Sequence record: PZ212788.1
DNA from: a phage
Direction: 5' to 3' (one strand)
Length of the DNA stretch: 64,000 bases
Part shown: positions 1,263 through 61,448 of the stretch, piece after piece
Layout: each line of letters starts with the position of its first letter
How positions within the stretch are numbered: the stretch's first letter is position 1
Made by a program: the position numbers and the translations under genes
The notes under the pieces: model-generated
Seen by the model: only the letters and a program-made list of their open reading frames with translations
What the model was told of the DNA's origin: nothing
Database searches by the model: none

Positions 1263-1594
1263 GCTTCCTCATCCTCCTCTCCTTCATCAGGAGCATAAGC
1301 CTTATCTTTGAACAGGACGAGAGAGCAAAGCTTAACATCTGTTTCCACACTGGTGAACATGCATAACCGCTCGCCCTCAATCAGCTCACAATCCTCTTTT
1401 AAAACAGCAGACCATACACGGTCATCTGCGTAATCATCCGTGTACAGGATGTATGAAATGGTGTCATCTTCATACAACCGCCACATACCTGTGGCAACAA
1501 TAAATGTATTTTTTGTTTTAATGGCCCCTGTTGTATGATCATCCTCAAAAACAGCTTCCATGATTGCATTATCTACAGAATTTTTAGTCATCAA
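1259..1594 (-). CDS. hypothetical protein (acidic C-terminus)
   Basis: ORF in co-directional early operon, stop overlaps next start. Confidence 0.4.
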   Translation of the reverse strand: MMTKNSVDNAIMEAVFEDDHTTGAIKTKNTFIVATGMWRLYEDDTISYILYTDDYADDRVWSAVLKEDCELIEGERLCMFTSVETDVKLCSLVLFKDKAYAPDEGEEDEEA

Positions 1595-2730
1595 ATTGCT
1601 CCAACATTTCTAAGAACGTTAACAAGTTTTGTTTGATCATTGAATGTTCGCTTCATATACAAACAGTCAAAAATTATACTCATCCATTGACCTACGGAAA
1701 TTCTACGATCAACACCATTGAAGTCAGTATACTTAACAACACCTTTCGGGAACCACTTCTTGTACTGATCAATAATAGCCACCCACATCTCCTTTGGAGT
1801 GCTGCACTGAGACAGTAGGTAGAATGCTGAGGCATCCCCGAACTTACCCTTACCGATAAGTCCTTGATACGGCTTGATATTGTCAGCAGAGTCACCACAC
1901 AGCATTTGGTATCCGAAGAACAGCATTCCGTAACCACCAACCTCTCCATTAGGCTTCATGAAGATGTTCCCCATACCGTTATCGATCAGCATAGGGGTTT
2001 CCCTTACAAAATCTCCCTTATCGTTTCGCATGGGATCGAACACAAGCCCCGGTAGTGTTCTTTGGTCCTTATCAATAGAGATAATAAACTTGTTGAACTT
2101 ACCTGTTTTTTGGTAGTGGTTCCAACCTTCAAATTGCTGAATAGCTAACCAGTCGTCAGCCTCGATACCGTTGATCACTTGAGCATTATACTGCTTTTGG
2201 AGATACTGTCTTGCATCTCCAAGCAGCAGTGGTCGAAGAGTATTGTTACGGTTGGCCTTGTATCTTTCCGGCATTGGAAGATCTAGTCTGAAGTTACCTG
2301 TGCCTCCCAACACCCCGACACATCGCTCTTCCGGAATACCCAGATAGTTAAGAACTGCATTAGCTTTACACTTAATTGTGTGTAAGCAGTTCTCTACAGG
2401 ATCAGGGGTTTGGATATCCAAGACATCGAAATCTTCTCGTGTCCACGGAATAAACTCCTTGCCAGCCTTTTTACATGCAGCTTCACGGTTGGTATTCTCA
2501 GCTTTTAACCAACCTCCAACGGTGTTCTTCTGCCGCCCCCAGAACTCTGTTCGTGTTTTAAACATCTTCTTACGTCCGGAGGCTTTGTGTGTTACCTCAA
2601 TTGTCCTTTTTTCACAACTTGCTGCAGCTTGATATGCAACCTGATCGAAGTCATAATAAACTATAGCGTCAGGTTCAAGAAGATCAGCCAGACAATCTAT
2701 GGACTCAATAAGTGGATATTCTCTACTCAA
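1591..2730 (-). CDS. 5'-3' exonuclease / flap endonuclease (FEN, T5 D15-like)
   Basis: FEN motifs ERYKANR, NGIEADDWLA and H3TH-like GDSADNIKPYQGLIGKGK, comparable to T5 D15 EYKGNR / GVEADD / GDLGDNIRGVEGIGAK. Confidence 0.65.
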   Translation of the reverse strand: MSREYPLIESIDCLADLLEPDAIVYYDFDQVAYQAAASCEKRTIEVTHKASGRKKMFKTRTEFWGRQKNTVGGWLKAENTNREAACKKAGKEFIPWTREDFDVLDIQTPDPVENCLHTIKCKANAVLNYLGIPEERCVGVLGGTGNFRLDLPMPERYKANRNNTLRPLLLGDARQYLQKQYNAQVINGIEADDWLAIQQFEGWNHYQKTGKFNKFIISIDKDQRTLPGLVFDPMRNDKGDFVRETPMLIDNGMGNIFMKPNGEVGGYGMLFFGYQMLCGDSADNIKPYQGLIGKGKFGDASAFYLLSQCSTPKEMWVAIIDQYKKWFPKGVVKYTDFNGVDRRISVGQWMSIIFDCLYMKRTFNDQTKLVNVLRNVGAI

Positions 2731-3031
2731 AGACCCTCCTGTTAGTTATTCTGCAAGATGGTTGGATGCTGTAATGGAATGCATCATCACTCTCTGCAAT
2801 AAGTGACTCAACATCCCAATACTTTTCAAAAAGGAACGGATTAGACCCCCAGTGGTGGGTTATTTTCATCAAGGAGTCTGGTATCATATAACCACAGATC
2901 TTAATTACATCGCCAGGTTGAATTGTGTTTTCATGAAGGTTGCTTGCCTTCTTCAGAATCATACCTTTATGATTCTCGTTTGCATACAACTGGACAATAT
3001 CTTTATCTTCAACAATAAAAATTTTAAGCAT
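2723..3031 (-). CDS. hypothetical protein
   Basis: ORF in operon context. Confidence 0.4.
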   Translation of the reverse strand: MLKIFIVEDKDIVQLYANENHKGMILKKASNLHENTIQPGDVIKICGYMIPDSLMKITHHWGSNPFLFEKYWDVESLIAESDDAFHYSIQPSCRITNRRVFE

Positions 3032-3090
3032 ATCTAGTTCTCCTAGTTTATAGATATCTGACCGATAATATCAGATTAATAACACTTTTG

Positions 3091-3384
3091 TCAAGACTTT
3101 TTAGTCTTTCTTGGAGAGCTTTTTGTTGATCTTTTCCTTTTGTGGTAGATTCCAAGTGCAGCGTTTTCTTGGGCGCACGTTTTAACAGTTCTCAGAGAAG
3201 AACTTTCAGCTTTAGGCAGGTTTAACTCCCACCAACCGAGCCAGTAAAGTTCTGATTCCGACAGCTGCTCAGATTCAGCCTTCCGATACAATGATTGCAT
3301 ACCTCTAATGATGTCGTCCAGAGGTGTATCGAATACAAAAGCTGTCTTATCGAATTTCTCTTTTACAGGTCTCTTAGCCATCAA
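3091..3384 (-). CDS. hypothetical protein (basic C-terminal tail)
   Basis: ORF in operon context. Confidence 0.4.
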   Translation of the reverse strand: MMAKRPVKEKFDKTAFVFDTPLDDIIRGMQSLYRKAESEQLSESELYWLGWWELNLPKAESSSLRTVKTCAQENAALGIYHKRKRSTKSSPRKTKKS

Positions 3385-3889
3385 GGTAACCCTCTATCCA
3401 CGAAAAGTCAGTCTTCCATTCTGGAACTTTACTAAGCTCACGCCACTCTGCAAAGCAGTCTCGGTAATACGCCTCTGCCATACTCTTGGTGATCTTATTC
3501 ACCTTAGCCAACTGATTAACTGCCTGAGCATACTTTCCACGGATATTTGCTAACCCAGGATGCACCGATGTGTGACAATCTGGGCACAACGCTATCAGTC
3601 CGACAAGCCGGATCACTCCCTCTTCGAAAGTGTAAAGTTCATGACACTCCACTGGGTGTTTGCTGCCTTTACCGCCGCACACCTCACAAGTGTAGTTGGC
3701 TTCTCTATAGCACTTCTTACGTATCTTATCCCACTCACTCTTCGTCACAGAGTTTCGGAGGTTATTATACCAAGCTGTTTCTGGGATCAGTTGCACAATA
3801 AGCCTGCGTTCAGACTTCATTAAACGTCCGTCTTCCACGTGTTCTCCCTCATTCAAAGAAATGGGTGCGAGGGCAGGAACCTGCCTCAC
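3374..3889 (-). CDS. zinc-finger protein, HNH-like
   Basis: CEVCGG...ECHELY...LCPDCH cysteine/histidine cluster. Confidence 0.35.
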   Translation of the reverse strand: MRQVPALAPISLNEGEHVEDGRLMKSERRLIVQLIPETAWYNNLRNSVTKSEWDKIRKKCYREANYTCEVCGGKGSKHPVECHELYTFEEGVIRLVGLIALCPDCHTSVHPGLANIRGKYAQAVNQLAKVNKITKSMAEAYYRDCFAEWRELSKVPEWKTDFSWIEGYLDG

Positions 3890-4055
3890 CTTGTTTCACA
3901 AGCTCGTAGAGCTCACCTTGACTTGTCTCATAAAGGCAAATACGTTTACCATTGTCCCGATATACATCGACAAGATACGCTGTTTCACCTGCAAACACGA
4001 CACCACAGGACAGACATGCTACCATGAACAAAATTGCCAACAGAAAATCTTTCAT
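3849..4055 (-). CDS. small lipoprotein
   Basis: N-terminal signal MKDFLLAILFMVACLSCG with lipobox L-S-C; AGGAGGG RBS 7 nt upstream; immediately downstream of endolysin; overlaps 3374..3889 by 41 nt. Confidence 0.45.
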   Translation of the reverse strand: MKDFLLAILFMVACLSCGVVFAGETAYLVDVYRDNGKRICLYETSQGELYELVKQGEAGSCPRTHFFE

Positions 4056-4086
4056 GGTTAAGCCCTCCTAAACATTTTATGAGGTA

Positions 4087-4115
4087 ACAATACCACGTCC
4101 GTGTGGTTATGTCAA
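4087..4115 (-). promoter_or_regulatory. sigma70-like promoter (TTGACA-N17-TATTGT) for lipoprotein gene
   Basis: Minus-strand reading TTGACA taaccacacggacgtgg TATTGT just upstream of RBS/ATG at 4055. Confidence 0.4.
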
Positions 4116-4118
4116 TGA

Positions 4119-4589
4119 TCAATCAAGGACAACACCGCCTGCCTTTTTAAACACCTCGATCAACTTCTCGATCTTCTGTTCATGCTGACCATATCCAGCA
4201 CCAGGTAACGAAGCCCAGCGGGAACGGCATTTATGGATAGCCTCGTGGATACGCCCTTCGTCAATGTCGGCGAGAGCCTTGCACTCACGGATCAGTTGCA
4301 ACGCAATCTTGTCCTGACTGGCGGGGCCAAAATCTGGCAATCCTAACTGTTCCATGTAGTGTTTAGCAAACTTCTCCAAAACCTGGTAACGACCAGCAGC
4401 GGAGGAGGTAAGTTTAGCATTTAGCTTAACGTACACACCTGGATGCTTGCTGTAATCGCTAAACAGCTTGCCACCAACTATGACATCGTATCCCCGATCC
4501 TTAGTGGGTTGCCTACCATTATCTGTGCCTTCCGAATATGCGATCATGTCCAAGAAAGCTTTTCGTTGAACATTTTTATCAAGTTTCAT
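4119..4589 (-). CDS. R: endolysin, lambda R-like lytic transglycosylase
   Basis: Near-colinear with lambda R: QRKAFLDM, YSEGTDNGRQPT, GYDVIVGG, ASLPGAGYGQHE, FKKAGG. Confidence 0.85.
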   Translation of the reverse strand: MKLDKNVQRKAFLDMIAYSEGTDNGRQPTKDRGYDVIVGGKLFSDYSKHPGVYVKLNAKLTSSAAGRYQVLEKFAKHYMEQLGLPDFGPASQDKIALQLIRECKALADIDEGRIHEAIHKCRSRWASLPGAGYGQHEQKIEKLIEVFKKAGGVVLD

Positions 4590-7349: not shown

Positions 7350-8111
7350 TTAAAGTTCCATAAAGTTTTCTACAGTTTCAATAAATGCTTTATCAGAGAA
7401 AGCGTCAACAGCACCGTTAAACCATACAGGGATCCCGCGATCCTCATATTGATAAAGGTCGCTACGTGAAATGCCACTTCCATCTGCACTCTGCGAATCA
7501 TACTTGTTTACAATCAGCAGTTTTGTGCCTTTACAAGTAGCAGGAAACAATTCCCAGTTAAAATTAATAACTGTGTTAGAACAACCTACCAGGATCACCA
7601 TATCATTGCTTGTGAGAGATGTCAACAGGTCATACATGTCTGTATACTTAGGAGCAACCTCACCGAAGAACACTACATTGGGCTTAACCCAGGTATACTT
7701 GCCTGTATCTACCTCCGTGTATCCGATATTTTTAATTACATCATTACCTTCAGCATCTTCGTAGGTGATTTCAGGCAAATACCCGTGGACATGTAAAATA
7801 TCTTCATGTTTTACACCAGCACGCTCCAGCAAATCATCTACATTGGTAGTAAGGTTGATCACACGACCAGACCAGCGGGAATACCACTCAGCGATCCGAA
7901 GATGTGCAAGGTTAGGATCAACACTGCCCAGAGCTACACGACGTGCATTGTAAAAGTCATGCACCTTATAGTAGTTCTTGGCAAAGGTGTGGATGTTGCA
8001 CACCTCATCGATGCTGAAATTCTCCCACATTGCAGTGCTACCAGATCGGAAAGTGGGAATACCAGATTCAGCGCTCAAACCAGCACCGGAGATAATAATC
8101 AGTCGTCGCAT
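7350..8111 (-). CDS. Sir2 (sirtuin) family NAD-dependent protein
   Basis: Sirtuin motifs ISGAGLSAESGIPTFRS, TTNVDDLLERAG, HVHG, PNVVFFGE; no four-cysteine zinc ribbon. Confidence 0.75.
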   Translation of the reverse strand: MRRLIIISGAGLSAESGIPTFRSGSTAMWENFSIDEVCNIHTFAKNYYKVHDFYNARRVALGSVDPNLAHLRIAEWYSRWSGRVINLTTNVDDLLERAGVKHEDILHVHGYLPEITYEDAEGNDVIKNIGYTEVDTGKYTWVKPNVVFFGEVAPKYTDMYDLLTSLTSNDMVILVGCSNTVINFNWELFPATCKGTKLLIVNKYDSQSADGSGISRSDLYQYEDRGIPVWFNGAVDAFSDKAFIETVENFMEL

Positions 8112-8119
8112 AAGTGTCC

Positions 8120-8470
8120 TCAGTAGATGTTTTGTTTAATCTCTATTCCAAACTTCTTGAATGAGTCAGCAGCAAGCATAAATTTACGAGCTGCCGATGG
8201 ATTAGAAGTATGCACGAAAATAATCACGTTGTCAATAAGTGGTGGCTTTCCGAATACAAGTTTCTCCTCTAGCGCAGAGAAGCAGTCGTACCCTTCAAGC
8301 ACTTCACCTAGATCATTGTCAAAATGCCACTCAGAAACGCGCCTGTAGAGCTTTCTATTATCGTTAATAAAATCCATGAACTCAGAAGAGTTCTTCAGCC
8401 AAAGAGCATCTTGGATTCCGTAATTTGACGGATCTCTCAAGTCATCTAGCCACACAATCAACTTCTTCAT
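8120..8470 (-). CDS. REC/flavodoxin-like small protein, translationally coupled to RNA ligase
   Basis: ATGA start/stop overlap with RNA ligase; KLIVWLDD, HFDNDLG, IFVHTSNP resemble receiver-like fold; function inferred from context. Confidence 0.4.
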   Translation of the reverse strand: MKKLIVWLDDLRDPSNYGIQDALWLKNSSEFMDFINDNRKLYRRVSEWHFDNDLGEVLEGYDCFSALEEKLVFGKPPLIDNVIIFVHTSNPSAARKFMLAADSFKKFGIEIKQNIY

Positions 8471-9402
8471 TGCATATAGTCCTCGTTGTGAAAATAGCAA
8501 TCAAGTATCTCACGGCGTTCCTGCTCCAGGAGGCAGTTCCACACATCTTCTGTGTAATTGCTACGAATGAAGTTTACCATGCCATAAAACTCTTCGTCAA
8601 TACGTTTAAAGATATCATCATCCCAAATCTTCCAAGCTTTACCCCTCATTACGGCCTTCCGTGCCAAATAGTATGGAGACTTGATCTTCAGCTGCAGGTC
8701 ATAAGGGTAGTAAGGCTTACGGATCATATACCCTTCGCCCCTTGTTTCTGCAGCTAATTCTTTTGCATAGCTGAACGGGATTTCACGCACAGTGTGAGGA
8801 CGTTTTGCACCAAGGTATTTGGCAATCCCATCTAAAGCTGCTTCTGGTAGCATTATTCCAGAATCATTATATCTGCAACCTATCAAATATGCGCCATGGT
8901 CTTCTTGAACAATATGCGGATCTGAAGGGTGACAAATTTCAAACATGAATGTCATGTTTTCATTGCCCATAACCTTCTTGATAAGATCTAAATTACCACA
9001 TTGCTCTTGGATGGTTTCCTTTGCAAGGTTACAATATGGAGAATCAAGAGACCCGGTTGTTGAGAACAATAGGTCACCTTTATGAGATGATACCACACCA
9101 AGGAATCCGTTCTTTTTCTCTACCGCAGTCACAAGCTTATTGTCAGGCAGGTTGGTGGAGTTTTCTCCCAAGTTAAACACTTTTGTGAAGGGCCATGCCA
9201 CAACATTTCCTTCATTACCTACAACAATGCCTCGGCACTCCAGTAAACGAGGGGACAAATGCCATAAATTGTTGTAAAATACTTTTCTAGCATATTTATA
9301 GATCTTTAACCCGAGATCTGGGTAATACCTACTGGTTACAAGACCTTTATCAACTAGGTCGTCTGCATTAAAATACTTCATCATACGTTCCTCATTTGTC
9401 AT
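8467..9402 (-). CDS. rnlA: RNA ligase, T4 Rnl1 (RnlA)-like
   Basis: PRLLECRGIVVG and VFNLGEN align with T4 Rnl1 PDALECRGIMFE / FFNLNEN; nucleotidyltransferase motif I KKNGF, motif IV EGYMIRK, motif V LKIK. Confidence 0.75.
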   Translation of the reverse strand: MTNEERMMKYFNADDLVDKGLVTSRYYPDLGLKIYKYARKVFYNNLWHLSPRLLECRGIVVGNEGNVVAWPFTKVFNLGENSTNLPDNKLVTAVEKKNGFLGVVSSHKGDLLFSTTGSLDSPYCNLAKETIQEQCGNLDLIKKVMGNENMTFMFEICHPSDPHIVQEDHGAYLIGCRYNDSGIMLPEAALDGIAKYLGAKRPHTVREIPFSYAKELAAETRGEGYMIRKPYYPYDLQLKIKSPYYLARKAVMRGKAWKIWDDDIFKRIDEEFYGMVNFIRSNYTEDVWNCLLEQERREILDCYFHNEDYMQ

Positions 9403-9920: not shown

Positions 9921-10475
9921 ATGAAATACTTTGTAACAAGCGACACACACTTTCTCCACCAGCGGGTCATGGAGTTTGATTCATGTCAAAAACACAGATC
10001 TCAGTATGATCACAATCTTGACAGTATGAATGCGGGAATCATCGCCGAATGGAACTCTGTTGTGTCACCTGCAGACACTGTGTTCCACTTGGGAGATATT
10101 GCGTGCACTAATGATAAGAATATCAACAACTTACTTCCAGATATTCTAAATATGTTGAACGGACATATTATTCTTGTTCGTGGCAACCATGACACAAGGA
10201 CGACTGTCAGAATTATGAAAGAGTTCGGTCATGAGGTTGTAGATTATTACGAGCTTCGCCACAACAAGAATTTGATCTGTATGAGCCATTACCAATTTGC
10301 AAAGTGGAACAGAAAGCCTCACGGATCAGTCCAACTGTTCGGTCATGCTCACGGAACCACACAACAGTTGTTTGGCAGGCAGCTTGATGTCGGTTGGGAT
10401 GTGTGGGGGAGACTCTTACCATTAGAAGAGGCATACCGTATTGCAATGAGTTTTGCTATTGACAGCGGGGAGTAA
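9921..10475 (+). CDS. calcineurin-like metallophosphoesterase (candidate polynucleotide 3'-phosphatase)
   Basis: Motifs SDTHF, HLGDI, RGNHD, GHAH; GAGG RBS; start 9921 eight nt after kinase stop. Confidence 0.6.
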   Translation: MKYFVTSDTHFLHQRVMEFDSCQKHRSQYDHNLDSMNAGIIAEWNSVVSPADTVFHLGDIACTNDKNINNLLPDILNMLNGHIILVRGNHDTRTTVRIMKEFGHEVVDYYELRHNKNLICMSHYQFAKWNRKPHGSVQLFGHAHGTTQQLFGRQLDVGWDVWGRLLPLEEAYRIAMSFAIDSGE

Positions 10476-13411: not shown

Positions 13412-13486
13412 GCCCTGTTAGCTTAGTGGATAAAGCAGCGGCCTTCTAAGCCGTTGACACTGGTTCGAGTCCAGTACGGGGTGCCA
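13412..13486 (+). tRNA. tRNA-Arg (anticodon TCT)
   Basis: Hand-folded cloverleaf: acceptor GCCCTGT/ACGGGGT, D arm GCTT/AAGC, anticodon stem GCGGC/GCCGT with loop CTTCTAA, T arm ACTGG-TTCGAGT-CCAGT, discriminator G, encoded CCA. Confidence 0.8.
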
Positions 13487-13490
13487 AATT

Positions 13491-13577
13491 GGGGAGTTAT
13501 CCCGTAGGGGTAGCGGTGTAGACTGTAAATCTATTGTCATTGCGACTCGGGTGGTTCGACTCCACCACTCCCCACCA
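13491..13577 (+). tRNA. tRNA-Tyr (anticodon GTA), type II
   Basis: Acceptor GGGGAGT/ACTCCCC, anticodon loop CTGTAAA, long variable arm, T arm GGTGG-TTCGACT-CCACC, CCA encoded. Confidence 0.8.
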
Positions 13578-13692
13578 AATTTATAGTTTTAAATGCATAA
13601 ATCATACAGATAATGGCATTGATATTTATCGTCGTTTATACTAGTCACTAACTGCTCGAAAATCAGTGTCATTATCAGTATTGTTTATAAAT

Positions 13693-13778
13693 GAGGGTAG
13701 GGAGCAATGGTGCTCAAGCGGTCTTGAAAACCGTCCCGTTGAGGATGACTTGATGATGGTTCGATTCCATTACCCTCA
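13693..13778 (+). tRNA. tRNA-Ser (anticodon TGA), type II
   Basis: Acceptor GAGGGTA/TACCCTC, anticodon stem GCGGT/ACCGT with loop CTTGAAA, long variable arm, T arm ATGG-TTCGATT-CCAT. Confidence 0.75.
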
Positions 13779-13879
13779 GCCATATTGTTGACCTTGTAAT
13801 TAATCGAAAGCCGGAAGCAGAACCGGATTATCAAATGTTACAGTCGTCATCGCCGACTAGCAACATGGTCAACATACTG

Positions 13880-13976
13880 AGCTAGGTAAGCCCTTTGGCA
13901 AGGGCGAGGATTTTTAATCCTGAAAATAGACGAGGTAGTCGTTGAATACATAGGTGGTTCGATTCCATCACCTAGC
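13880..13976 (+). tRNA. atypical tRNA-like element (97 nt), anticodon hairpin presenting TTT (Lys-like), with about 30-nt variable-region insertion
   Basis: Acceptor GCTAGGT/ACCTAGC, D arm GCCC-TTTGGCAA-GGGC, hairpin AGGA-TTTTTAA-TCCT, T arm GGTGG-TTCGATT-CCATC; too long for canonical tRNA. Confidence 0.4.
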
Positions 13977-13985
13977 ACCTTTTTT

Positions 13986-14061
13986 GCTGATGTAGCACAA
14001 TTGGTAGTGCAATTGATTTGTAATCAATAGGTTGCAGGTTCAAGTCCTGCCATCAGCACCA
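13986..14061 (+). tRNA. tRNA-Thr (anticodon TGT)
   Basis: Acceptor GCTGATG/CATCAGC, D arm GCAC-AATTGGTA-GTGC, anticodon stem ATTGA/TCAAT with loop TTTGTAA, T arm GCAGG-TTCAAGT-CCTGC, CCA encoded. Confidence 0.8.
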
Positions 14062-14062
14062 T

Positions 14063-14137
14063 GGCCCTGTAGCTGGAAGGTTCAAGCAAGCGACTCATAA
14101 TCGCCAGACGGTGGTTCAATTCCACCCAGGGCCACCA
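14063..14137 (+). tRNA. tRNA-Met or tRNA-Ile2 (anticodon CAT)
   Basis: Acceptor GGCCCTG/CAGGGCC, anticodon loop CTCATAA, T arm GTGG-TTCAATT-CCAC, CCA encoded. Confidence 0.7.
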
Positions 14138-14148
14138 AATAATAAATA

Positions 14149-14225
14149 CTCCGCGTAGCTCAGCTTGGTAGAGCGCCTGATTTGGGATCAGGAGGTCGAG
14201 TGTTCGAATCACTCCGTGGAGACCA
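14149..14225 (+). tRNA. tRNA-Pro (anticodon TGG)
   Basis: Acceptor CTCCGCG/CGTGGAG, D arm GCTC-AGCTTGGTA-GAGC, anticodon stem CCTGA/TCAGG with loop TTTGGGA, T arm GAGTG-TTCGAAT-CACTC, CCA encoded. Confidence 0.8.
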
Positions 14226-41956: not shown

Positions 41957-42381
41957 TGAGCACACACCCTCGTTTAGTGGATTGGCAAGAAAGATTGTGG
42001 AAAGTGTTTGACGAAGAGGCCACCATACCTTTTGAATGGGGATTCCACGATTGTTGCACCTTTGCAGCTAAGTGTGTTGATGCCCAATACGGAACAGATT
42101 TTCTTTCTAACTTTGAAGGAACGTATAAAACAGAGTTGGAAAGCAAGAGATGGTGCATGCTTCATTTCAAAACCACACATCTGCCCACTATTTTTGATTT
42201 CTTTATGACTCGACTGGACACTCCTAAACAGGTTCAGCGTGGTGATATTGTTATTTTCGAAGGCCTGAACGGGCTCACCGCTGGTGTGTTCTGGAACAAC
42301 CAGATTTGGGCGAAAGGGGATAAAGGGGTCTTTATGTTCGACATGAAAGATTCTATCGTTGTTGATGTCTGGAGGTATTAA
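41956..42381 (+). CDS. tail-associated protein with cysteine-peptidase-like motif (putative cell-wall hydrolase)
   Basis: FHDCCTF and GDIVIFEG segments resemble NlpC/P60/CHAP-type motifs; weak. Confidence 0.3.
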   Translation: MSTHPRLVDWQERLWKVFDEEATIPFEWGFHDCCTFAAKCVDAQYGTDFLSNFEGTYKTELESKRWCMLHFKTTHLPTIFDFFMTRLDTPKQVQRGDIVIFEGLNGLTAGVFWNNQIWAKGDKGVFMFDMKDSIVVDVWRY

Positions 42382-45300
42382 TGCCAATTGCAATGATTGA
42401 TAACATCGTTGCTTCTGCAAGATCTTCAAGTTATGACTGGAACGCATCCAAGGCAGCTCTGGCTGACAGCCTGAACACTGTTACCACCAGAACTCTGGAT
42501 AAGATTTTTGAGGGCAACAAATCTTACAGAAGTCAGCAAGATAGACAAAAGCTTCTCAGATCTTCTGCTGCACCTTGCTCTGTAGTGTATGGGAAGACAC
42601 GCACATCTGGATTACTTGCGTTTTTGGAGCAGGACAGGGACAGGACCCTCCATTGTGCTATTGTTCTTGCCAATCATCCCCTGGAAGGTATAGAAGATAT
42701 ACTCATCGACGGTAATCCTATTTCCTCGTATGGAGATTTGATATCGTGGGAGCTACATAACGACAGAAAAACATCTGATCCTTTCATGGGTACACACTGC
42801 CCGTCGTGGTCACCAGACATGATAGGTAGAGGGATCAGTTGGCTACGTGCCAGCTTCAGGTTTGACCCTAACAAGTTCCCTTTTGGGTTGCCAAACGTTA
42901 CACTCGTCAAGGTTGGTAAAAAATGCTATGATCCTCGTATCAGTAAAGAGGTGTATACCAATAACGCGGCCTTGGTGATTCTAGACTATTTAAGAACGTA
43001 CCTTAAATGTCCTGACGAAACCATCAACTGGGAGTCCTTCAAGGAGGCTGCTAACATATGCGATGAGGCGGTAAGAAACGCGGACGGAACTAGTGAGCGC
43101 CGTTACACCATTAATGGTGAGTTCGATATGGATGAGGCCCCAGCAAGTATTATGGCAGAAATGCTGAAAGCTTGTGGTGCAGATCTCAGCTATGTAGCTG
43201 GTAAGTATGGACTGCTGGTAGGTGCATATTATGGTCCGGCAACAATGACACTGAGTGAGGACTGTGTCTGTGGTGAGGTTAAGATCTATCCGGAAGCCTC
43301 GTTTGACAAAAGATCCAACACAATAACTGGCAGATTCACCAGTCCGACTAAAGGGTATTCTGAAACAGATTTTCCATCAGTATTTGTCCCAGAGTGGATA
43401 GAGAAGGATGGAGAAAGAAAGATAATCGATATAGACTACCGCTTTGTTACCAGTCCTTACCAAGCTCAGCGTGTTTCTGCAATCTTCTTAAGACGTGCTA
43501 GAGCTGGCAGGATTATTGAAGTCACCTGCAATATGCGAGGTTTTAAATTTAAGCCTGGTAGTTACGTTACAATGGACCTTCCAAGTATTGGTATAGTGGG
43601 CCAAGAAATGAGGGTTCTTGAGTGGGAGTTCACTAAAAAGGGTGGTGTTAAGGTAAAACTTCGCCAAGATGCTAAAGAGTGGAATGATGCCACAGGGCAA
43701 CTTCCTGATTCCGGCGATGTAGATATTCCGATATCCCCGTCCGGTGTAGCTCAACCGCAAAACTTCAGATACTCCGTTCTCCAAGCTGGGGAAGTAACTC
43801 ACGGTGTTTTGGCTTGGGACAACGTTGGAACTTACGCTCAAAATATTGTGCAGGTAAGAAAGAACGGAGAGATTGTTTGGACAGCACAGACAGTTGAGCA
43901 GTTTGTCCGAGTAGAAGGCTTGACCAAAGGGTCATACACAGCAACCGTGGTTGCAACATCTTATAAAGGTGGTGTATCTCCAGAAGCCTACTGCGAGTTC
44001 AACATTCAAGCACCTGAAGCTCCTGTTTCTGTAGAAGTTAAGCAGGGATACTTTGCTATCACCTTGATTCCGCATAGTAGGGATTTAGCAAGTGTTAGCA
44101 CCCAGTATGACTTTTGGACATCCGGTATGACAAGGTTGCCAGACACCAGTGATGCAACCGTTACTTCAAAAGCCACCCGTATGGGTGTTGGTTCAACTTG
44201 GACATCTGAAGGTCTGCAGAACGATAAGATTTATTATTGGTATATTAGAACCACAAACGCTTTTGGTAGTTCTCAGTTTGTAGAATGCGCTGCACGCTGC
44301 TACACCTCTATTGAGGATTTGATGCCTCAGATAGATGCTGAATTCAAAAAGACAGAAACTTATAAAGAGTTGATGAGTACTTTGGATTCCTCTATTGAAG
44401 AGGTTGAAAATCGTGTCACAGAACTTAACAGGTACATGGATGGTAGGGTAGATGAAGCGTTCCAGCAACTTGGGGACAGAATAGGTGCGGTAGTTACAGA
44501 AACAACTCAGAAGTTTGAAGATGTCAATGGTAACATTACAGCGCTGGATAGGAAACTTGTTGCTGCACAGAACAAATTCACCAACGATCTGAACACTGAA
44601 AGTGGCAGACTGGCATCTCTGATCGAGACAACCAATAAAGCAACTACTGATCTTCTGAACAAAAAGACAGAGGCTTTAGATGAGAAATTGGTTGCCGCCA
44701 AAGGTGAGCTGGTAGAGCAGATAGAGGGAGTTGAGAGCGGGTATTTAGCCGGAGATAAAACTCTGGATGGTAAGATCAATACTCAGAGAACAGAACTTGA
44801 CGCAAGCATCTTGAGCACTAACCAGGCAACTGTGGATCTTTTGAACAGGACATCTGAAACTCTGGATCAAAAGATCAGTCAGACAAACGCGACGGTATCT
44901 AAAAACTATACCACCCTGGATGGCAAGATAACCACCGCAAAAACTGACCTCAACACCTTGATTGCCAATACCAACAAGGCCACCACTGACTTGTTGAATC
45001 AGAAAACATCTGCACTGTCAGAGCAGATAACTTCTGCACGTGGGGAGATTTCTACCAACAAGCAGGCGATTGATGCTTTGGATGGAAAACTGACTTCCAC
45101 AAAAACAGCGCTGGATGCTACAATTTCCGATACCAACAAAGCTACTGTGGACCTTATCAACGGCACAGCGTCAGCTATTCGTCAAGAACTTGCTGTTGCT
45201 AAGCAGGAGATCATTGATGATGTTGGGGATGTGTCCGAAATCAGGGCTGCAGTAGCTACAACATCTAAGGCTGTAACCGACTTAGAGGGTAAAGTAAATG

Positions 45301-46220
45301 CTCAATGGGGCACAAAAATACAGGTAGACTCCGCAGGGAATAAATATGTTGCAGGTATCCAGTTGGGGATGGAAGGGTCTGGAGGCCAAGTTCAATCCTA
45401 CTTCATGGTTAGTGCAAACAATTTTGCGGTATACAACCCTGGAAATGGAACAGCAACCCTTGCTTTCGCAATCAAGAACAACCAAGCGTTCTTGAAAGAT
45501 GCTTTTATAGAGAACGGGACGATTTCATCTGCCAAGATCGCACAAGAAATTTCGTCAAACAACTACGATGGCAACGGGTACCATAAATACGGTTGGTATA
45601 TTAACAAGAACGGGCACGCCCAATTTATGGATGTATGGGTGAAAGGCAACATCAACGCCAGTTCTGGTAACTTCACAGGGGCAGTTAACGCCACTAGTGG
45701 TACCTTCCGTGGGGATGTTTATGCCAATAATGGTAGCTTTAGGGGCACCATAGATGCAACTGGAGGTACCTTCCGTGGACGTGTAGAAGCTTCCGTTATC
45801 CGTGCTAACCAGTTCGAAGGTGCAATCGTTGCACATAGGACCTACGGTGACTGTTCTCCAGTGTACAACTCGCAGCAAAGGGTTTGCCGTTGGAGGTGGA
45901 GATATGTGGACAACGTGCAAGGCCAAGGTAAGAACGTAACATTCTTCTTTAAACTGAATGGTACTCTTGCCAGCTCACAACTGAATGCATGGATAGCTGG
46001 TCATCAGATCCTTGCTGGCAAGAAGTATTTTAACGACAACAACGGCATGTGTGCGGTAGGGATAACAGGTCTGGGTGAACAAACTATAGACATTGTTATC
46101 GAGATTTACACACCGTGGTCAACGTCTAGCGTGACAGGTGTCACAATCTCCTGTCCTACTGTGATCGTTAGTCGTTCTAACTCAAGCTTCCAGGGACCTT
46201 GGAACGAGTCTCACGACTAA
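42381..46220 (+). CDS. large tail fibre/baseplate protein with FN3-like region, tandem coiled-coil repeats and Gly-rich C-terminal repeats
   Basis: 1279 aa; repeated NKATTDLLNKKTEALDEKL-type units; C-terminal repeated G(T/S)FRG. Confidence 0.5.
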   Translation: MPIAMIDNIVASARSSSYDWNASKAALADSLNTVTTRTLDKIFEGNKSYRSQQDRQKLLRSSAAPCSVVYGKTRTSGLLAFLEQDRDRTLHCAIVLANHPLEGIEDILIDGNPISSYGDLISWELHNDRKTSDPFMGTHCPSWSPDMIGRGISWLRASFRFDPNKFPFGLPNVTLVKVGKKCYDPRISKEVYTNNAALVILDYLRTYLKCPDETINWESFKEAANICDEAVRNADGTSERRYTINGEFDMDEAPASIMAEMLKACGADLSYVAGKYGLLVGAYYGPATMTLSEDCVCGEVKIYPEASFDKRSNTITGRFTSPTKGYSETDFPSVFVPEWIEKDGERKIIDIDYRFVTSPYQAQRVSAIFLRRARAGRIIEVTCNMRGFKFKPGSYVTMDLPSIGIVGQEMRVLEWEFTKKGGVKVKLRQDAKEWNDATGQLPDSGDVDIPISPSGVAQPQNFRYSVLQAGEVTHGVLAWDNVGTYAQNIVQVRKNGEIVWTAQTVEQFVRVEGLTKGSYTATVVATSYKGGVSPEAYCEFNIQAPEAPVSVEVKQGYFAITLIPHSRDLASVSTQYDFWTSGMTRLPDTSDATVTSKATRMGVGSTWTSEGLQNDKIYYWYIRTTNAFGSSQFVECAARCYTSIEDLMPQIDAEFKKTETYKELMSTLDSSIEEVENRVTELNRYMDGRVDEAFQQLGDRIGAVVTETTQKFEDVNGNITALDRKLVAAQNKFTNDLNTESGRLASLIETTNKATTDLLNKKTEALDEKLVAAKGELVEQIEGVESGYLAGDKTLDGKINTQRTELDASILSTNQATVDLLNRTSETLDQKISQTNATVSKNYTTLDGKITTAKTDLNTLIANTNKATTDLLNQKTSALSEQITSARGEISTNKQAIDALDGKLTSTKTALDATISDTNKATVDLINGTASAIRQELAVAKQEIIDDVGDVSEIRAAVATTSKAVTDLEGKVNAQWGTKIQVDSAGNKYVAGIQLGMEGSGGQVQSYFMVSANNFAVYNPGNGTATLAFAIKNNQAFLKDAFIENGTISSAKIAQEISSNNYDGNGYHKYGWYINKNGHAQFMDVWVKGNINASSGNFTGAVNATSGTFRGDVYANNGSFRGTIDATGGTFRGRVEASVIRANQFEGAIVAHRTYGDCSPVYNSQQRVCRWRWRYVDNVQGQGKNVTFFFKLNGTLASSQLNAWIAGHQILAGKKYFNDNNGMCAVGITGLGEQTIDIVIEIYTPWSTSSVTGVTISCPTVIVSRSNSSFQGPWNESHD
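44570..45200 (+). repeat. in-frame tandem repeats encoding coiled-coil heptad units
   Basis: At least four imperfect copies of about 120 nt (TNKATTDLLN.KT..L...). Confidence 0.5.
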
Positions 46221-55730: not shown

Positions 55731-55738
55731 TATATCTA

Positions 55739-55764
55739 ACCGCTCCTGACGGGGCGGTTTTCTT
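55739..55764 (+). terminator. rho-independent terminator
   Basis: ACCGCTCC-TGAC-GGGGCGGT hairpin followed by TTTCTT. Confidence 0.55.
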
Positions 55765-55778
55765 ATCTGGAGAACACA

Positions 55779-58700
55779 ATGCTTCCAATCCCTTTGCTAA
55801 AACTTGGTCGTCATTTCCTCGATAAGAGGGGTGGAATTAAGGAACTTGCTGTTCTGTCATACCCAATAGACAACAGTGATGGTACAAGCAACACAGTATC
55901 CTATGTAAATAGCTTAGCTATACTTTTTGATGATGGTCAGCTTAATATTACTGGCTATAATAGGTTCGGAGAGTGTCGGACTGGAGATCTTGATACAATA
56001 AACTATCCTAATGAGGCAGCTTGGAACGTAGACCATGTTTGGAGAGCTGACCGTGCATTTGTAATCCGCACATTCGATAATAAATTTTTCTATATTGGTT
56101 GCACAGCTGGTCTTATCGGATCGGAGGCAGCAGGTGGAAACGATGTTTGTGTCAGAGAGTGGACACCTTTGCCGGAACAGATCGTAACAGGGTTGCATTT
56201 GGACACCCATCCTGAGAGACTTGTTGAAGTAATGGGTGGCGTAAACAATACCGTGTGGGTAATTGCTGCACCAGAGGCTGATGGTATGCTTCACCTGTAC
56301 GGCTCTGGCAATAATACTTACGGCTCTCTTCATGTTGACAAAAGTCAACACGCTACTCCAGTTAAGATCGGTGAAACATCTGAAAGTCCAGAGACAGGTC
56401 CTTGGAAAAATCCAAGAATTAATTGTGAAGTTCATGACAACTCGGTTATTTTTGGTGGTCCTAACGGATTCTGGATTGCAGGTTACGACTTTCTGAGAAA
56501 TAACAGTAGAAACGACCTTGTTTGGCCTCCTGTGCAGATTACTCGTAACGATTTGAGGGGCATTCCTGCAGATGAGGAGTGGAAAGGGTTTATGTGTGGT
56601 CCTAACGGGGCAGTAATTGCTACACAGAGGATGCATAGACCCGATGACCAGCAGCTTGTTAACGTATTTTATGGTCAAAACATTTGGGGAGATGATACAT
56701 GGCGGGAACTGAATATCACCTACACCCATGAGGTAATGATGGCTCGTGGGTACGGCACAAGTGGCATTTTCTTCAATAATGGCACCAAGCAGTATCGTGG
56801 ATTCTCTCGCAACTTGTGTAATGATATTGGTGCACAATCTGCAAACAATAGTCCTAGGTCCGATTTTATCCACTATCAAGCTCTTGCTACAGCTAAATAT
56901 GTTGAGCAACGCCTGCCAGTTAGCTGGACAGAGAGTGTTTATTTCCAAGGCATCCATAGAGAAGGTTTCTTAGGGACCTTTACTGTTGTTAATGGTAAAC
57001 TTTGGTGGTCAGGCATCCCAAGGGGAAGTTTTGCAGGCTCTAACAACCTGTTTGGAGGCAGACTTAATAGCCAGGGGTTCACAGAGGTTCCTGAGAATTG
57101 GTATAAAAATGTCCCGGTAGACAGTTGGGGTGTTGAGGATATTTTCGACGTTAACGGTGTTAGCAGCGTTAGCAATATTTACATTGGTGACACGGTCAAG
57201 ATGAAGTTGAAGCCTCAGCCAGAGGGGGCTACGTTCATTATTGACAAGATTGAACTGGTAAATGCTGCAGGTACGGTTGTTACAGATGCAAATTACCAAT
57301 TCTCCACCAACTGGAACCACGGAGGGGCCAATGAAGTTGTTGTCACCCAGTATAACAGAAATGTTAACAGACGTGGCCTGTACTCTGTAAAAATAACCTA
57401 TCATGACAAGCATGGCACAGGCAGAACCCATACGACAAGGACTTTGAACTGGAACACCATAGTTCCTGCGTACCCGTCTGATGGTAAATGGCATACTGTC
57501 GGTAGAAACAAACAGTTCCATGTCAACGATACTGTATACTTTGGGTTGAATGCGGCTCAGCCTGCAGTAGAAGGGGATACATCGTATATGGTCAGACTCC
57601 ATAGAATGGATGCCGGATCAGTAACTTATGATGTTACCCAAGAGATTTATAATCAGCGACGAAATACCTATGATAACTTGGTGCAGACACAGGCCTTATG
57701 GGAGTTCAACCCAAACGGCAGAGGTGGTAAAATGTTGCAGGTCAATGAACAAAACGGGACATCGTTAACTGTTCACGAACACCCAAACCCTTGGCCTGAT
57801 CCTGGAAAACCTAACTCTGGTGCTCGTACACTGAAAATTGTCAGCCATGATGTAGGATATTTCGGAATACGCTGGGAAGCTACAGTAAGATATGCCGACG
57901 GGACAACAAACAACATAGGGATCACTCTTGGTGGCACTAGTGAGGATAACTCACTGAAAATTGCCTACACCCCTAGAGGCATCTCTATTGACAATATGGA
58001 TGTTGTTCGCAACGGTTACGGCGATGTGAATGTCAAAGTTACTCTTGGCGAACATCTTGGTGGGGAAAGGATCATCATGTATGCCTTTGATCATGACCCT
58101 CGCACCAACGGAACCTATGCAGACCAGGCGTGGAGCTACCTGATAAGCGCACCTGAGCCAAATACTAAAGAGTTCTACTACGGTATGAAGCGAGATGTGT
58201 GCAAGAAAACAGGAACACATGACTGGATTGCTATCTGCGTTAAAGATGAGCGCACAGCTTGGGACGAGCCTGTTAACAGATGGTTCATAGGGATTCCTAC
58301 CAGAAGTGATAAATACGTTGAAGACTATATCGTGTGTATGGGCGGCACCAACCTCAACATGTGTTGGAACGAGGATGCTGCAAACAAATACTCTGACTAT
58401 GACTATATGAGGGACTACTCTTGCAATCAATGGTTTAACCAATCCGGATATGCTAATCGACAGTCAAGAGTAAATCCTGCAATCTTTACAGATACGCAGG
58501 TTTTCTTGTTGAAACAGGCAAACGAGGTTCAGACCTTCAAGAATAACTATGACCCTAATAAGTGGTTCTACAACTGTTACGGGGCATACTTTTGGGGACC
58601 TGCTGAACTGCCTGACAGCGGCTCTTGCTTCGAGGCTGCAACCTACGGCAGCGACTATATCATGGGACAGGTCAAGAAGTACAAGATGATCCCAGGGCCT

Positions 58701-61406
58701 GAAACTTTAGGTAACGCTGTTGACCCATACATAAATTTCGCAGCTTTGCATGCGAATATGGATGGTGCAAGGTATCCGTTCAACGTTCCAGTCGCCAATG
58801 GGTACAGACGTGTCGTGATGATTATCAAATGCGATCTGATCGGAAAGCAAGTTCTTGCAGAAAACGGAACATCCACACATCCTTTTGAAGTTGCTCTGCA
58901 CTACCAGTTTGCAGACTCACCATATGCGGGAGATAAAAGAATCTCCGACACAGACTCTAAGCGCTGTAAGAAAGTTTTACTTGGAGCCGGGTGGTGGTGG
59001 TACGAGTTTGATTTAACAGATAAGTTCACAGATGATACCAAAACTCTCACAGGTATCCGTCTGGACCTTGGTGAGAACATGCACAAAGCTGTTTGTGATG
59101 GCACCTACGGTGATCCTACAGTATACTTGAAGTATGTCTCTCTTGAGCATCCAGAGGATGCCGTAATCGGTCCTAAACTGAAATTGTTCGGCTCATGGAT
59201 TGCCAAGGATAGAGTAGGAATGGGTAAGAAAGTGAGAGGATTCCTGATAGACGCAGGGACAGAGGACATGCTGGTTAATGCAGTGTGGCCTACGCTAGAA
59301 GGCACTGCCTACAACAATGCAGCTAGGTCTATAAATTGGTTCAACATTCACAGAGCTATGTGGACCACTAACTGCTACTTGTGGAGAGAGCTTAACGATC
59401 AGGCCTTTGGCTTTAGTGACGGCAGAAGGATGGCGATCATTTGCTGGACAACACTGCAAAGATGTTATGACCATGACTACGAGATTGGCGGTAGAGCATG
59501 GAAAGATATCAGAGATAGAATCATATACAATTTTGCAGATGATAATGGTGGCGGGGCATATAACTTTGGCACAAGCCGACTTATCCACTTGAACGGATCT
59601 TTAGCCTACAAGAAAGAAGGTTACTCTGGGTCCATGATCGAGTGGGGCCTGGTAAAAGATGCTCGTATATTGATGGGCCAGCAACTTGCTGCCGCAATAG
59701 GACCTAGCGCAGTGCAGTCTGTTAAACCAGCGTGGTTCGATATTCCATTGTGGTCACCTGGAACACCAGGAACTGCTGCAATCAACCCTACCACTGGGGA
59801 TCTAGAAATCTCATGGGAGGACTTGAAGCAGGTCGGTGGTTGGGATAAAACAGGGTATCAGGTTCAGTGGTGGAGGCCTGATGGATCTTTAGCCGCTGAT
59901 GAGTTTGTTAAGGACAATTTCTACACTATGTCTTCTGCAAAAGCACAGCAATTGTTCGGTCAGGCCACTCCGTCAACGATCACCATGTCTATGTGCTGTA
60001 AAGACAACAGGACTGGAGCTCTGGGACCGAGGGTTGCTAAGGTTTTCTCAGGTATTAAATGGAATCTTCCTGTTCAAAGTGTTTCATGGAAGCAAATAGG
60101 TGATAACAAGCTGCTGGTTACCCCTGCCTGTCAGTTCAACGCAACTCTTAACGTTGATCCTGCTGTTGCGGCAAACTCAGCTAAAGCTTCTGACTTCTCT
60201 GTGTCTAACACTGCTATGGCAGATGTGAGGAAGATTGACACACTGAACGCCAGAATTACCTGTAAAAACACTTATGGCACATTCCAAATCATCAACAACT
60301 TCACAGATGCTGATTCTAAGGTAGTAAGGACAGCAAGCCAGACTCTGAGTTTAGGGACTCTGGCCTATGCGGCCCTGATCACCGAGCAGTCGGCAACACT
60401 CCAAGGAGGTGGTGTAGGCAAGTCCATTGCAACACCTGTGTGGAAGCCAAATGAGTGGGTTGTGTTTGATTTGACTGTGGACTTCTCCAGCGATAATAAC
60501 TGGACATGGGTAAGGAATTGTTTGTCACAATTGATGGGAGGTCCAAGCTCCGTTAGTGATAGTCACGACTCTACTGACCCGAGTGTGTTCCAGGTAGGTA
60601 AAACTCACCCAGAGACTGGAGAAACGTTGCCTGACAGGAAGTATGCGTTGGTTTGCATCTCTTACGGGAAGGCAGATGTCACCTTCTCGGGGACACACAC
60701 TTATAACGGAACATACAATTTCTCAAGGAAGTATAGTCTCAAAGCAGGGAACATTATAGACGAGGTTGGTGCACTGTATAATCCTGGAAACGGCATAGGG
60801 ATTGTGGGTGGTCAACTGCAGATGCAGGAACCTTCTATTACCCCTTCCAACGTATCTGGGATTAGAAAGACTTGGGAAAGTAGCAATACCAACATTGCAA
60901 CAGTGGATGCTACCACAGGGCTGGTAACATTTAAAGCTACTGGGAATGTCACCATAAAGTTTGTAGTTACAGATGATGCAGGCCGCAAAACGTCCTCAAC
61001 ATCATTCACTGTCAAACAGATGGCACCTCAGTGGTTTATTTGGGAAGGAAATCCTCTTGACGGGGCCTACCCTAGACCTGCAGGAACGTCTAATATGAGG
61101 GTCTTTACCGGTCCGGTAATGAACAATCCGACCACAACCACCAACCCTACATTTTTTGGTGCTTACATACCTGAAATTATTGGCCTACCAAGGAACCAGA
61201 TACAACTGCTTTTCGGAGCAGGTGTTGATGGTCTAGCCACTTTTGGGTACAGTGACAACATTGATGCAGCCAGAAGCTCTGGTTGGATTGGATTTAAGTT
61301 TCAGTGGAACCCTGGTGGTAGAACATTAGGTATTGCAAGCATAGGTGTTATGCTACCTGGTAACCAGCAATACCATCTCGAAGCTTATACAAACTTCCCT
61401 AGTTAA
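55779..61406 (+). CDS. giant structural protein (1875 aa), candidate adhesin/fibre with Ig-like domain
   Basis: Single uninterrupted ORF with GGAGAA RBS; Ig-like (Big_2-type) segment near C-terminus. Confidence 0.5.
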   Translation: MLPIPLLKLGRHFLDKRGGIKELAVLSYPIDNSDGTSNTVSYVNSLAILFDDGQLNITGYNRFGECRTGDLDTINYPNEAAWNVDHVWRADRAFVIRTFDNKFFYIGCTAGLIGSEAAGGNDVCVREWTPLPEQIVTGLHLDTHPERLVEVMGGVNNTVWVIAAPEADGMLHLYGSGNNTYGSLHVDKSQHATPVKIGETSESPETGPWKNPRINCEVHDNSVIFGGPNGFWIAGYDFLRNNSRNDLVWPPVQITRNDLRGIPADEEWKGFMCGPNGAVIATQRMHRPDDQQLVNVFYGQNIWGDDTWRELNITYTHEVMMARGYGTSGIFFNNGTKQYRGFSRNLCNDIGAQSANNSPRSDFIHYQALATAKYVEQRLPVSWTESVYFQGIHREGFLGTFTVVNGKLWWSGIPRGSFAGSNNLFGGRLNSQGFTEVPENWYKNVPVDSWGVEDIFDVNGVSSVSNIYIGDTVKMKLKPQPEGATFIIDKIELVNAAGTVVTDANYQFSTNWNHGGANEVVVTQYNRNVNRRGLYSVKITYHDKHGTGRTHTTRTLNWNTIVPAYPSDGKWHTVGRNKQFHVNDTVYFGLNAAQPAVEGDTSYMVRLHRMDAGSVTYDVTQEIYNQRRNTYDNLVQTQALWEFNPNGRGGKMLQVNEQNGTSLTVHEHPNPWPDPGKPNSGARTLKIVSHDVGYFGIRWEATVRYADGTTNNIGITLGGTSEDNSLKIAYTPRGISIDNMDVVRNGYGDVNVKVTLGEHLGGERIIMYAFDHDPRTNGTYADQAWSYLISAPEPNTKEFYYGMKRDVCKKTGTHDWIAICVKDERTAWDEPVNRWFIGIPTRSDKYVEDYIVCMGGTNLNMCWNEDAANKYSDYDYMRDYSCNQWFNQSGYANRQSRVNPAIFTDTQVFLLKQANEVQTFKNNYDPNKWFYNCYGAYFWGPAELPDSGSCFEAATYGSDYIMGQVKKYKMIPGPETLGNAVDPYINFAALHANMDGARYPFNVPVANGYRRVVMIIKCDLIGKQVLAENGTSTHPFEVALHYQFADSPYAGDKRISDTDSKRCKKVLLGAGWWWYEFDLTDKFTDDTKTLTGIRLDLGENMHKAVCDGTYGDPTVYLKYVSLEHPEDAVIGPKLKLFGSWIAKDRVGMGKKVRGFLIDAGTEDMLVNAVWPTLEGTAYNNAARSINWFNIHRAMWTTNCYLWRELNDQAFGFSDGRRMAIICWTTLQRCYDHDYEIGGRAWKDIRDRIIYNFADDNGGGAYNFGTSRLIHLNGSLAYKKEGYSGSMIEWGLVKDARILMGQQLAAAIGPSAVQSVKPAWFDIPLWSPGTPGTAAINPTTGDLEISWEDLKQVGGWDKTGYQVQWWRPDGSLAADEFVKDNFYTMSSAKAQQLFGQATPSTITMSMCCKDNRTGALGPRVAKVFSGIKWNLPVQSVSWKQIGDNKLLVTPACQFNATLNVDPAVAANSAKASDFSVSNTAMADVRKIDTLNARITCKNTYGTFQIINNFTDADSKVVRTASQTLSLGTLAYAALITEQSATLQGGGVGKSIATPVWKPNEWVVFDLTVDFSSDNNWTWVRNCLSQLMGGPSSVSDSHDSTDPSVFQVGKTHPETGETLPDRKYALVCISYGKADVTFSGTHTYNGTYNFSRKYSLKAGNIIDEVGALYNPGNGIGIVGGQLQMQEPSITPSNVSGIRKTWESSNTNIATVDATTGLVTFKATGNVTIKFVVTDDAGRKTSSTSFTVKQMAPQWFIWEGNPLDGAYPRPAGTSNMRVFTGPVMNNPTTTTNPTFFGAYIPEIIGLPRNQIQLLFGAGVDGLATFGYSDNIDAARSSGWIGFKFQWNPGGRTLGIASIGVMLPGNQQYHLEAYTNFPS

Positions 61407-61423
61407 CAGGAGGAAAATAAAAA

Positions 61424-61448
61424 AGGGGCCAAACGGCCCCTTTCTTTT
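61424..61448. terminator. bidirectional rho-independent terminator
   Basis: AGGGGCC-AAAC-GGCCCCT hairpin flanked by A-run upstream and T-run downstream; sits between convergent genes. Confidence 0.7.

Follow-up and report, generated by a model that had tools for sequence, protein, structure and literature searches.

A gene for a protein of 1875 amino acids (aa) occupies positions 55779-61406 of the 64,000-nt stretch of phage DNA analysed here (sequence record PZ212788.1; the whole stretch is referred to as the window), which is that of a Vequintavirus, an rV5-like myovirus. The gene, called the giant gene in the following, is the ortholog of the one for gp27 of rV5 (YP_002003529, 1878 aa, annotated as “Ig-like domain-containing protein”) and of bas55_0041 of JeffSchatz (Bas55); the features at and around it are collected in Table 1. 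As a first-pass annotation made from the sequence letters had held, it is a single uninterrupted open reading frame (ORF), beginning with ATG and running through its 1875 codons with no internal stop. Compared to rV5 and JeffSchatz, it takes most of its substitutions at third codon positions (17/11/60 and 21/15/77 base changes at positions 1/2/3 in the two comparisons), and the ratio of nonsynonymous to synonymous substitution rates (dN/dS) is 0.07–0.10 overall (about 0.08) and 0.02–0.14 for the individual domains, except for the C-terminal tip in the comparison with rV5, where dS is saturated; the giant ORF is therefore a real gene under strong purifying selection. The biased codon usage that had been ascribed to it was not borne out, as its usage is typical for this phage (r = 0.89 with the other structural genes; GC content at third positions, GC3, 0.44 vs 0.42).

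The gene has matches in 122 phage records; in 108 of these the match spans 80% or more of the gene, and the full-length orthologs among the matches listed are 90–98% identical at the amino-acid level. Beyond the phage collection the family comprises only 15 clusters among 5.8 billion clustered proteins; a repeat search with the family alignment returned the same 15 and added none, and a word-indexed search with aa 1-450 as the query gave fragments only. Thirteen of these clusters are 45–58% identical to the window protein over aa 1-1433, and most derive from contigs of 27–142 kb; L003 (123 kb), the single contig inspected, shows full synteny with the window. Within the window, BLASTP found no paralog of the giant protein. 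One family member (P0002, on a 124-kb contig) is filed in NCBI under Escherichia coli, and another, a partial protein that covers 13% of the aa 1-450 query at 100% identity, under Eggerthella lenta; this pair (P0002 and P0020) is probably phage DNA in bacterial assemblies or contamination. Likewise, 15–20 GenBank records (MG0656xx) named “Campylobacter phage”, with C. jejuni as host, carry rV5-type genes 89–100% identical to coliphage genes, and the host given for them is probably incorrect.

The most conserved part of the giant protein is its N-terminal domain (aa 1-445), which is read as an RCC1-like β-propeller, and it is the homologs that carry this reading. The window protein itself stays below the cutoffs of the relevant profiles (PF25390, E = 8e-5, 22.5 bits, cutoff 150; RCC1_2, 16 bits, cutoff 22), but PF25390 is matched by 12 of 16 family members, and PF00415 (cutoff 21.7 bits) is passed by the homologs GAP31_232 (32.7 bits), KE23 (31.5 bits), and ESCO13 gp245 (24.0 bits). 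The alignment of GAP31_232 with the window protein extends over aa 1-449 (E = 5.6e-14), and that of ESCO13 gp245 is good over aa 1-207 only, with 39% identity; the domain is also matched by phrog_4219 (E = 8.5e-8). Aligned half against half with hhalign, the propeller gave E = 0.26, at an effective sequence number (Neff) of only 1.3.

Beyond the propeller lies a string of β-sandwich domains, followed by a helical core into which a jelly roll resembling a carbohydrate-binding module (CBM) is set, and by FN3-like, hypervariable, and Ig-like domains ending in a C-terminal tip. Both halves of the core are rich in invariant residues; the first has, for example, FTD.Q.FL.KQANEVQ, and the second contains the invariant motifs GTEDMLVNAVWP, NWFN.HRAMW, EIGG..W, and EGY..SMIEWG, so that aa 830-1330 hold dozens of invariant polar and aromatic residues. 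When 1.84 billion representative proteins were searched with a profile of this region, every match but one belonged to the family; the exception, a repetitive eukaryotic protein, was discarded as spurious, which leaves the core with no outside relatives. The Ig-like segment noticed near the C-terminus in the first pass proved genuine: Big_2 (aa 1677-1733, 34.1 bits, cutoff 22.8) is the only Pfam domain above threshold. Nor was the impression that no enzymatic motif is recognizable overturned, since Pfam, NCBIfam, PHROGs, and PDB sequences yielded no catalytic domain; NCBIfam gave nothing useful at all, and the full-length profile found nothing below E = 0.25 among PDB sequences. Structure prediction with AlphaFold2 (AF2) used an alignment of 16 sequences for each of two segments, aa 760-1875 and aa 1-900; the jelly roll and the FN3-like and Ig-like domains came out usable, and the propeller and the helical core were left unfolded. 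The “intimin” in the label given to the ortholog in BASEL, “lateral tail fiber protein with intimin domain”, reflects only the one Big_2-type Ig-like domain shared with the intimin/invasin family (PDB 1e5u, E = 0.004): the giant protein has none of the β-barrel, LysM, and C-type lectin domains of intimin, and the NCBIfam model of the full intimin architecture, NF033627, reaches 24.1 bits (cutoff 1400) on a single Ig-like stretch.

Table 1. Features at and around the giant gene (positions are those of the window; pLDDT, predicted local distance difference test).
Feature	Position	Strand	Basis or remark
Upstream tail-fibre gene, rV5 gp28 ortholog, 581 aa	53985-55730	+	phrog_4549 tail fibre, E = 1e-250
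GC-rich hairpin with T-run, terminator-like	55738-55759	+	pattern scan; predicted folding energy -16.7 kcal/mol
Shine-Dalgarno sequence GGAG	55769-55772	+	read from sequence; 6 nt before ATG
Giant gene, rV5 gp27 ortholog, 1875 aa and stop	55779-61406	+	ORF list, sequence comparison
RCC1-like β-propeller (read as), N-terminal, aa 1-445	55779-57113	+	sub-threshold profiles, homologs
About three β-sandwich (FN3/Ig-like) domains, aa 446-835	57114-58283	+	
Helical core, first half, aa 836-968	58284-58682	+	invariant residues; AF2 pLDDT mostly <50
CBM-like jelly-roll β-sandwich, aa 969-1124	58683-59150	+	exchanged between sub-lineages
Helical core, second half, aa 1125-1318	59151-59732	+	AF2 pLDDT 23–45
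FN3-like domain, aa 1319-1430	59733-60068	+	AF2 pLDDT 55–81; weak fn3 match, E = 0.16
Hypervariable domain, aa 1431-1588	60069-60542	+	unaligned by BLAST
Two Ig-like domains, aa 1589-1750, the second Pfam Big_2	60543-61028	+	
C-terminal two-allele tip, aa 1751-1875	61029-61403	+	candidate ligand-binding end
Bidirectional intrinsic terminator where genes of the two strands converge	61419-61446	both	pattern scan; annotated on both strands in rV5
Antisense ORF, 347 aa, shadow-frame artefact	55914-56957	-	codon-frame check, comparison to JeffSchatz and rV5

The domains have diverged to very different degrees. Identity to distant homologs is 68–72% in the propeller, 16–21% in the hypervariable domain, and 32–39% in the Ig-like end, and the jelly roll is 62–67% identical in one sub-lineage and 32–37% in another; in the family member P0015 the first sandwich domains have been replaced, and between close relatives dS varies from 0.04 to 1.6 from domain to domain. 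With such swaps of domains and so uneven a dS, the giant gene is a recombination mosaic. The tip falls into two classes: in 114 genomes, 38 have it at ≥95% identity to that of the window and 76 have the rV5 type, which is about 62% identical, with no intermediates, and dN between the classes is 0.32. The window thus carries the minority allele, in which it differs from rV5 gp27, which with the other Vequintavirus orthologs it otherwise resembles in full-length sequence, position, and flanks. No other phage protein was found to contain the tip domain. A conserved proximal end with exchangeable distal modules is what host-recognition proteins usually show.

The place of the gene is conserved as well. 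The related genera inspected have the same order: a gp28-type fibre gene comes first, then a T-run hairpin, one last gene, and a switch of strand. This agrees with the earlier description of the giant gene as the last structural one: it is the final gene of the tail-fibre module by synteny in relatives, and terminator-like hairpins do lie before and after it. The proteins encoded in this slot form a family spanning Vequintavirinae and Stephanstirmvirinae, with five related genera and lengths from 411 to 1976 aa, namely W70_106 of Septuagintavirus (411 aa), GAP31_232 (567 aa), KE23 (595 aa; Seunavirus), ESCO13 gp245 of Phapecoctavirus (891 aa), and the forms of Vequintavirus and uncultured relatives (1875–1976 aa, P0015 being the longest). 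All begin with M-x-P-[I/F]-P and share the N-terminal domain, although W70_106 is linked to the rest only weakly (it is 29% identical to GAP31_232 over aa 1-154, matches phrog_4219 over aa 1-99, and gives a profile E of 4.5e-5); Big_2 domains are present in the forms of 567–891 aa. The short homologs (ESCO13 gp245, the GAP31_232/PVP-SE1 type of 567–604 aa, and W70_106) are thus like the window protein in slot, start motif, and N-terminal domain, but they lack a block of about 1150 aa (aa ~446-1588) comprising sandwiches, jelly roll, and helical core, and the Vequintavirus form looks like a short form with these ~1150 residues inserted between propeller and Ig-like end.

The fibre gene that always precedes the giant gene is 98–99.8% identical across the Vequintavirus rows listed, and gp28 orthologs match PF26208/PF26209. 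With gp246 of ESCO13 (L004, 6935-8956), which otherwise consists of a Tail_spike_N domain and collagen repeats, it shares only the C-terminal ~105 aa (51% identity), which appears to be a module conserved on otherwise unrelated fibres. The hairpin between the fibre gene's stop (55730) and the ribosome-binding site of the giant gene recurs in L003 (~9971-9992) and in ESCO13, GAP31, and W70, where it was folded (L004 ~8962-8981, L010 ~7817-7840, and L009 ~8200-8219), and in KE23, where it was seen in sequence only. Its position just before the ribosome-binding site is kept and the stem sequences are wholly different across genera; that the structure is kept while its sequence differs argues that the hairpin is functional, and it is probably an attenuator of transcription into the last gene.

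Records in which the giant gene is annotated as split were checked base by base, and null alleles were found in at least 10 of the 122 GenBank records holding the gene (at least 8%) and, besides these isolates, in one metagenomic contig (Logan contig L008, W558 to TGA). The lesions are nonsense codons in nomine (W82 to TAG), in magaca (L006) and ECP26 (L018; Y617 to TAG in both), and in phita32 (Q1439 to TAA); 1-bp deletions with frameshifts near aa 207 in Alma and near aa 762 in naswa; deletions of 2 bp near aa 1052 in ime and of 10 bp near aa 1274 in EPFV3-03/2025; several deletions in V18; and a deletion of ~2.95 kb (gene nt ~1302-4248, aa ~434-1416) in APCEc02 (L014, KR698074.1 121258-123930). 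An internal frameshift, which the first-pass annotation had named as grounds against the ORF, is absent from the window and present in the related isolates with a split gene; their split copies indicate that the gene can be spared in culture rather than that the ORF is false. The phages with null alleles were plaque-purified on K-12 or other hosts, and the giant protein is therefore not needed for lytic growth in culture. No suppressor tRNA for the amber alleles is encoded in the window. Null alleles combined with a dN/dS of about 0.08 are the mark of an accessory function of importance in nature; the side tail fibres of lambda and the lateral fibres of T5 show the same pattern.

Several observations on these alleles may be added. 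Four of the lesions lie between aa 558 and aa 762. The nonsense change at codon 617 (TAT to TAG) stands in magaca and ECP26 on alleles only 92.5% identical that differ within 10 nt of the site, so that either the same codon mutated more than once or a short patch was transferred. The APCEc02 deletion, which is out of frame and leaves three ORF fragments, takes most of the block present in Vequintavirus and missing from the short slot homologs. In the tRNA cluster of the window (13412-14225), ARAGORN reports a 99-nt “tRNA-???” with a four-base anticodon (atcc) at 13881-13979 (+); the six other tRNAs are ordinary, with no suppressor among them. The ORF at 42381-46220 (+), used as a control for the frequency of gene splitting, proved confounded, as its mechanical start overlaps the upstream gene; its true start is probably downstream, its first part overlaps a separate “cell wall hydrolase” gene in relatives, and many genomes have a variant of it for which the alignment covers just 77% of the length.

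As to the presence of the protein in virions, gp27 of rV5 was recorded only weakly by mass spectrometry, with 3 peptides and 9 spectra (3.1% coverage), and the short counterpart W70_106 is a virion protein by the same method, with 115 spectra in W70 virions. SDS-polyacrylamide gel electrophoresis of rV5 virions gave major bands of 288 and 174 kDa (data not shown there; PMC3606486); the largest predicted rV5 protein is gp27 with 208 kDa.

The reading favoured here, to which we give a probability of about 0.55, is that the product of the giant gene is a low-copy, virion-borne accessory adhesin of the tail-fibre apparatus. The protein, probably monomeric, would be docked by its propeller to the fibre network, where the gp28-type fibre encoded just upstream is a possible partner because its C-terminal ~105 aa are conserved wherever a slot protein occurs. 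The string of sandwich domains would hold the distal Ig-like domains and the tip away from the tail, and these may bind a surface glycan or another ligand reversibly and so help the phage to adsorb to its natural hosts or to be retained on them or in the gut. The upstream hairpin would keep expression, and hence copy number, low; laboratory strains would make the protein unneeded, so that null alleles survive or are even selected. Of the virion-associated adhesin suggested in the first pass, the adhesin-type role thus fits the domains, the mosaic evolution, and the two-allele tip, while the virion signal is weak in rV5 and clear only for the short W70 counterpart.

Several points weigh against this interpretation. 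Besides being weak, the rV5 signal comes from non-tryptic peptides, as is the one peptide shown. Both AF2 models are of low confidence (mean pLDDT 54.5 for aa 760-1875 and 48.5 for aa 1-900), with values below 50 over most of aa 1-450, so that the propeller was not folded, and the CBM-like call concerns one domain with pLDDT 70–84. Mydovirus KpS8 has a gp28-type fibre, C-terminal domain included, and no slot gene; the link between gp28 and the slot protein is therefore not strict, and the docking partner is speculative. The known receptor of Vequintavirus, the NGR glycan (the BASEL paper took the same dependence as one on enterobacterial common antigen, ECA), has been assigned to a different fibre, one with a deacetylase domain. 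The single-base indels of naswa and Alma could be sequencing errors, which is unlikely for the nonsense substitutions and the longer deletions. Finally, both the localization of the protein and its ligand are proposals.

A virion-borne polysaccharide depolymerase, with the two halves of the core (aa 836-968 and 1125-1318) as a new catalytic domain and the jelly roll as its CBM, is unlikely, though the likeliest of the alternatives. The core carries invariant acidic, aromatic, histidine, and arginine residues (E1162-D1163, N1189/H1191/R1192, E1235, E1280, E1288) and encloses a CBM-like domain, and glycosidase or deacetylase annotations are attached to several other fibre proteins of the module; the N-x-H-R..W motif bears a loose resemblance to Asn/His/Arg/Tyr sites of lyases, a lead rather than a test. 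Yet no catalytic family matches in Pfam, NCBIfam, or PDB sequences, the core is without a homolog among the representative proteins searched, its pLDDT is too low over most of its length for a fold or cleft to be read, and the shorter slot homologs do without it. It is no less doubtful that aa 830-1330 are a new fold with a new, glycan-cleaving or -modifying activity on a monomeric, propeller-anchored tail appendage; if true, this would be a host-recognition organelle unlike trimeric fibres and spikes, needed in the wild and regularly lost in culture.

A lateral tail fibre of the usual trimeric kind, belonging to the three fibre sets on virions of the rV5/phi92 type, would suit a gene of the fibre cluster with moderate allelic variation (in the BASEL paper it is the last of the large lateral tail fibre genes, and such variation is noted) whose short homologs PHROG calls “tail protein”. 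Such a fibre is nevertheless quite improbable: Pfam and PHROGs reveal no shaft, β-helix, collagen-like repeat, or C-terminal chaperone domain, the predicted secondary structure (of low confidence) consists mostly of separate sandwich domains and the helical core, the N-terminus is a propeller-type globular domain instead of a fibre anchor, no phi92 homolog is among the tblastn hits, the paper on the structure of phi92 proposes other candidates for the fibres of that phage, and the gene is dispensable in at least ten isolates. Dispensability, like the Ig-like domains, would be in keeping with a Hoc-like decoration of capsid or neck that serves adherence to mucus or surfaces and takes no part in host recognition; phrog_215 is filed under “head and packaging”, and there is a weak PDB match to a decoration protein (E = 0.25). 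Given that the gene always ends the tail-fibre module behind the fibre gene, in several genera, and that capsid binding is without evidence, such a decoration has little to recommend it. Least credible is that the protein is ejected or internal to the virion, or that the gene is decaying and without function, readings to which the size of the protein and the common null alleles might lead; decay is excluded by the dN/dS of about 0.08, and injection, which had been among the roles first suggested, sits poorly with a variable tip and with Ig-like, FN3-like, and CBM-like modules, which are typical of exposed proteins.

The accessory adhesin favoured above would, as far as can be told, work similarly to lambda Stf, the T5 lateral tail fibre pb1, and T4 Hoc, which are dispensable on laboratory hosts, have been lost in laboratory stocks, and carry Ig-like or other binding modules that speed or broaden adsorption. 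The giant protein has no sequence relation to any of them, and these are trimeric fibres or a capsid decoration, whereas its own features are a proposed propeller anchor and a large core found in its family alone. β-Propellers do occur in host-recognition proteins of phages, as in P2 of PRD1 and Gp45 of the staphylococcal phage phi11; there is no detectable homology to the giant protein, and there the propeller is the binding platform, in contrast to the giant protein, in which it is the most conserved, proximal part.

The 347-aa ORF antisense to the giant gene had been taken for a probable artefact, and rightly so. It lies in the shadow frame, in which its stops correspond to sense TTA, CTA, and TCA codons, and sense codons 46-398 of the giant gene happen to be free of these; in JeffSchatz and rV5 the antisense frame is interrupted at sense codons 239 and 247, and in JeffSchatz also at 311. 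As a shadow frame that is interrupted in these relatives, it is therefore an artefact and ruled out as a gene.

The ORF itself is already known, being present in more than 100 records, and the literature searched turned up no functional study of the giant gene or any ortholog; as far as that literature shows, there is no earlier description of the proposed propeller anchor, of a slot family growing in steps, of the core's lack of relatives, of the two-allele tip, or of the frequent null alleles. The giant protein is the largest of the rV5-like phages, its gene takes up ~4% of the genome, and these phages are among the coliphages most often isolated and most often proposed for therapy, with host recognition assigned only in part (one fibre, for the NGR glycan). 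The growth of the slot protein from 411 to 1976 aa, together with a core that has no outside relatives, makes for a clean case of module birth in a phage adhesin. Isolates with a broken copy may differ from wild phage in adsorption or in their behaviour in vivo, and the natural amber and frameshift mutants are a ready-made genetic test of what the giant protein does.

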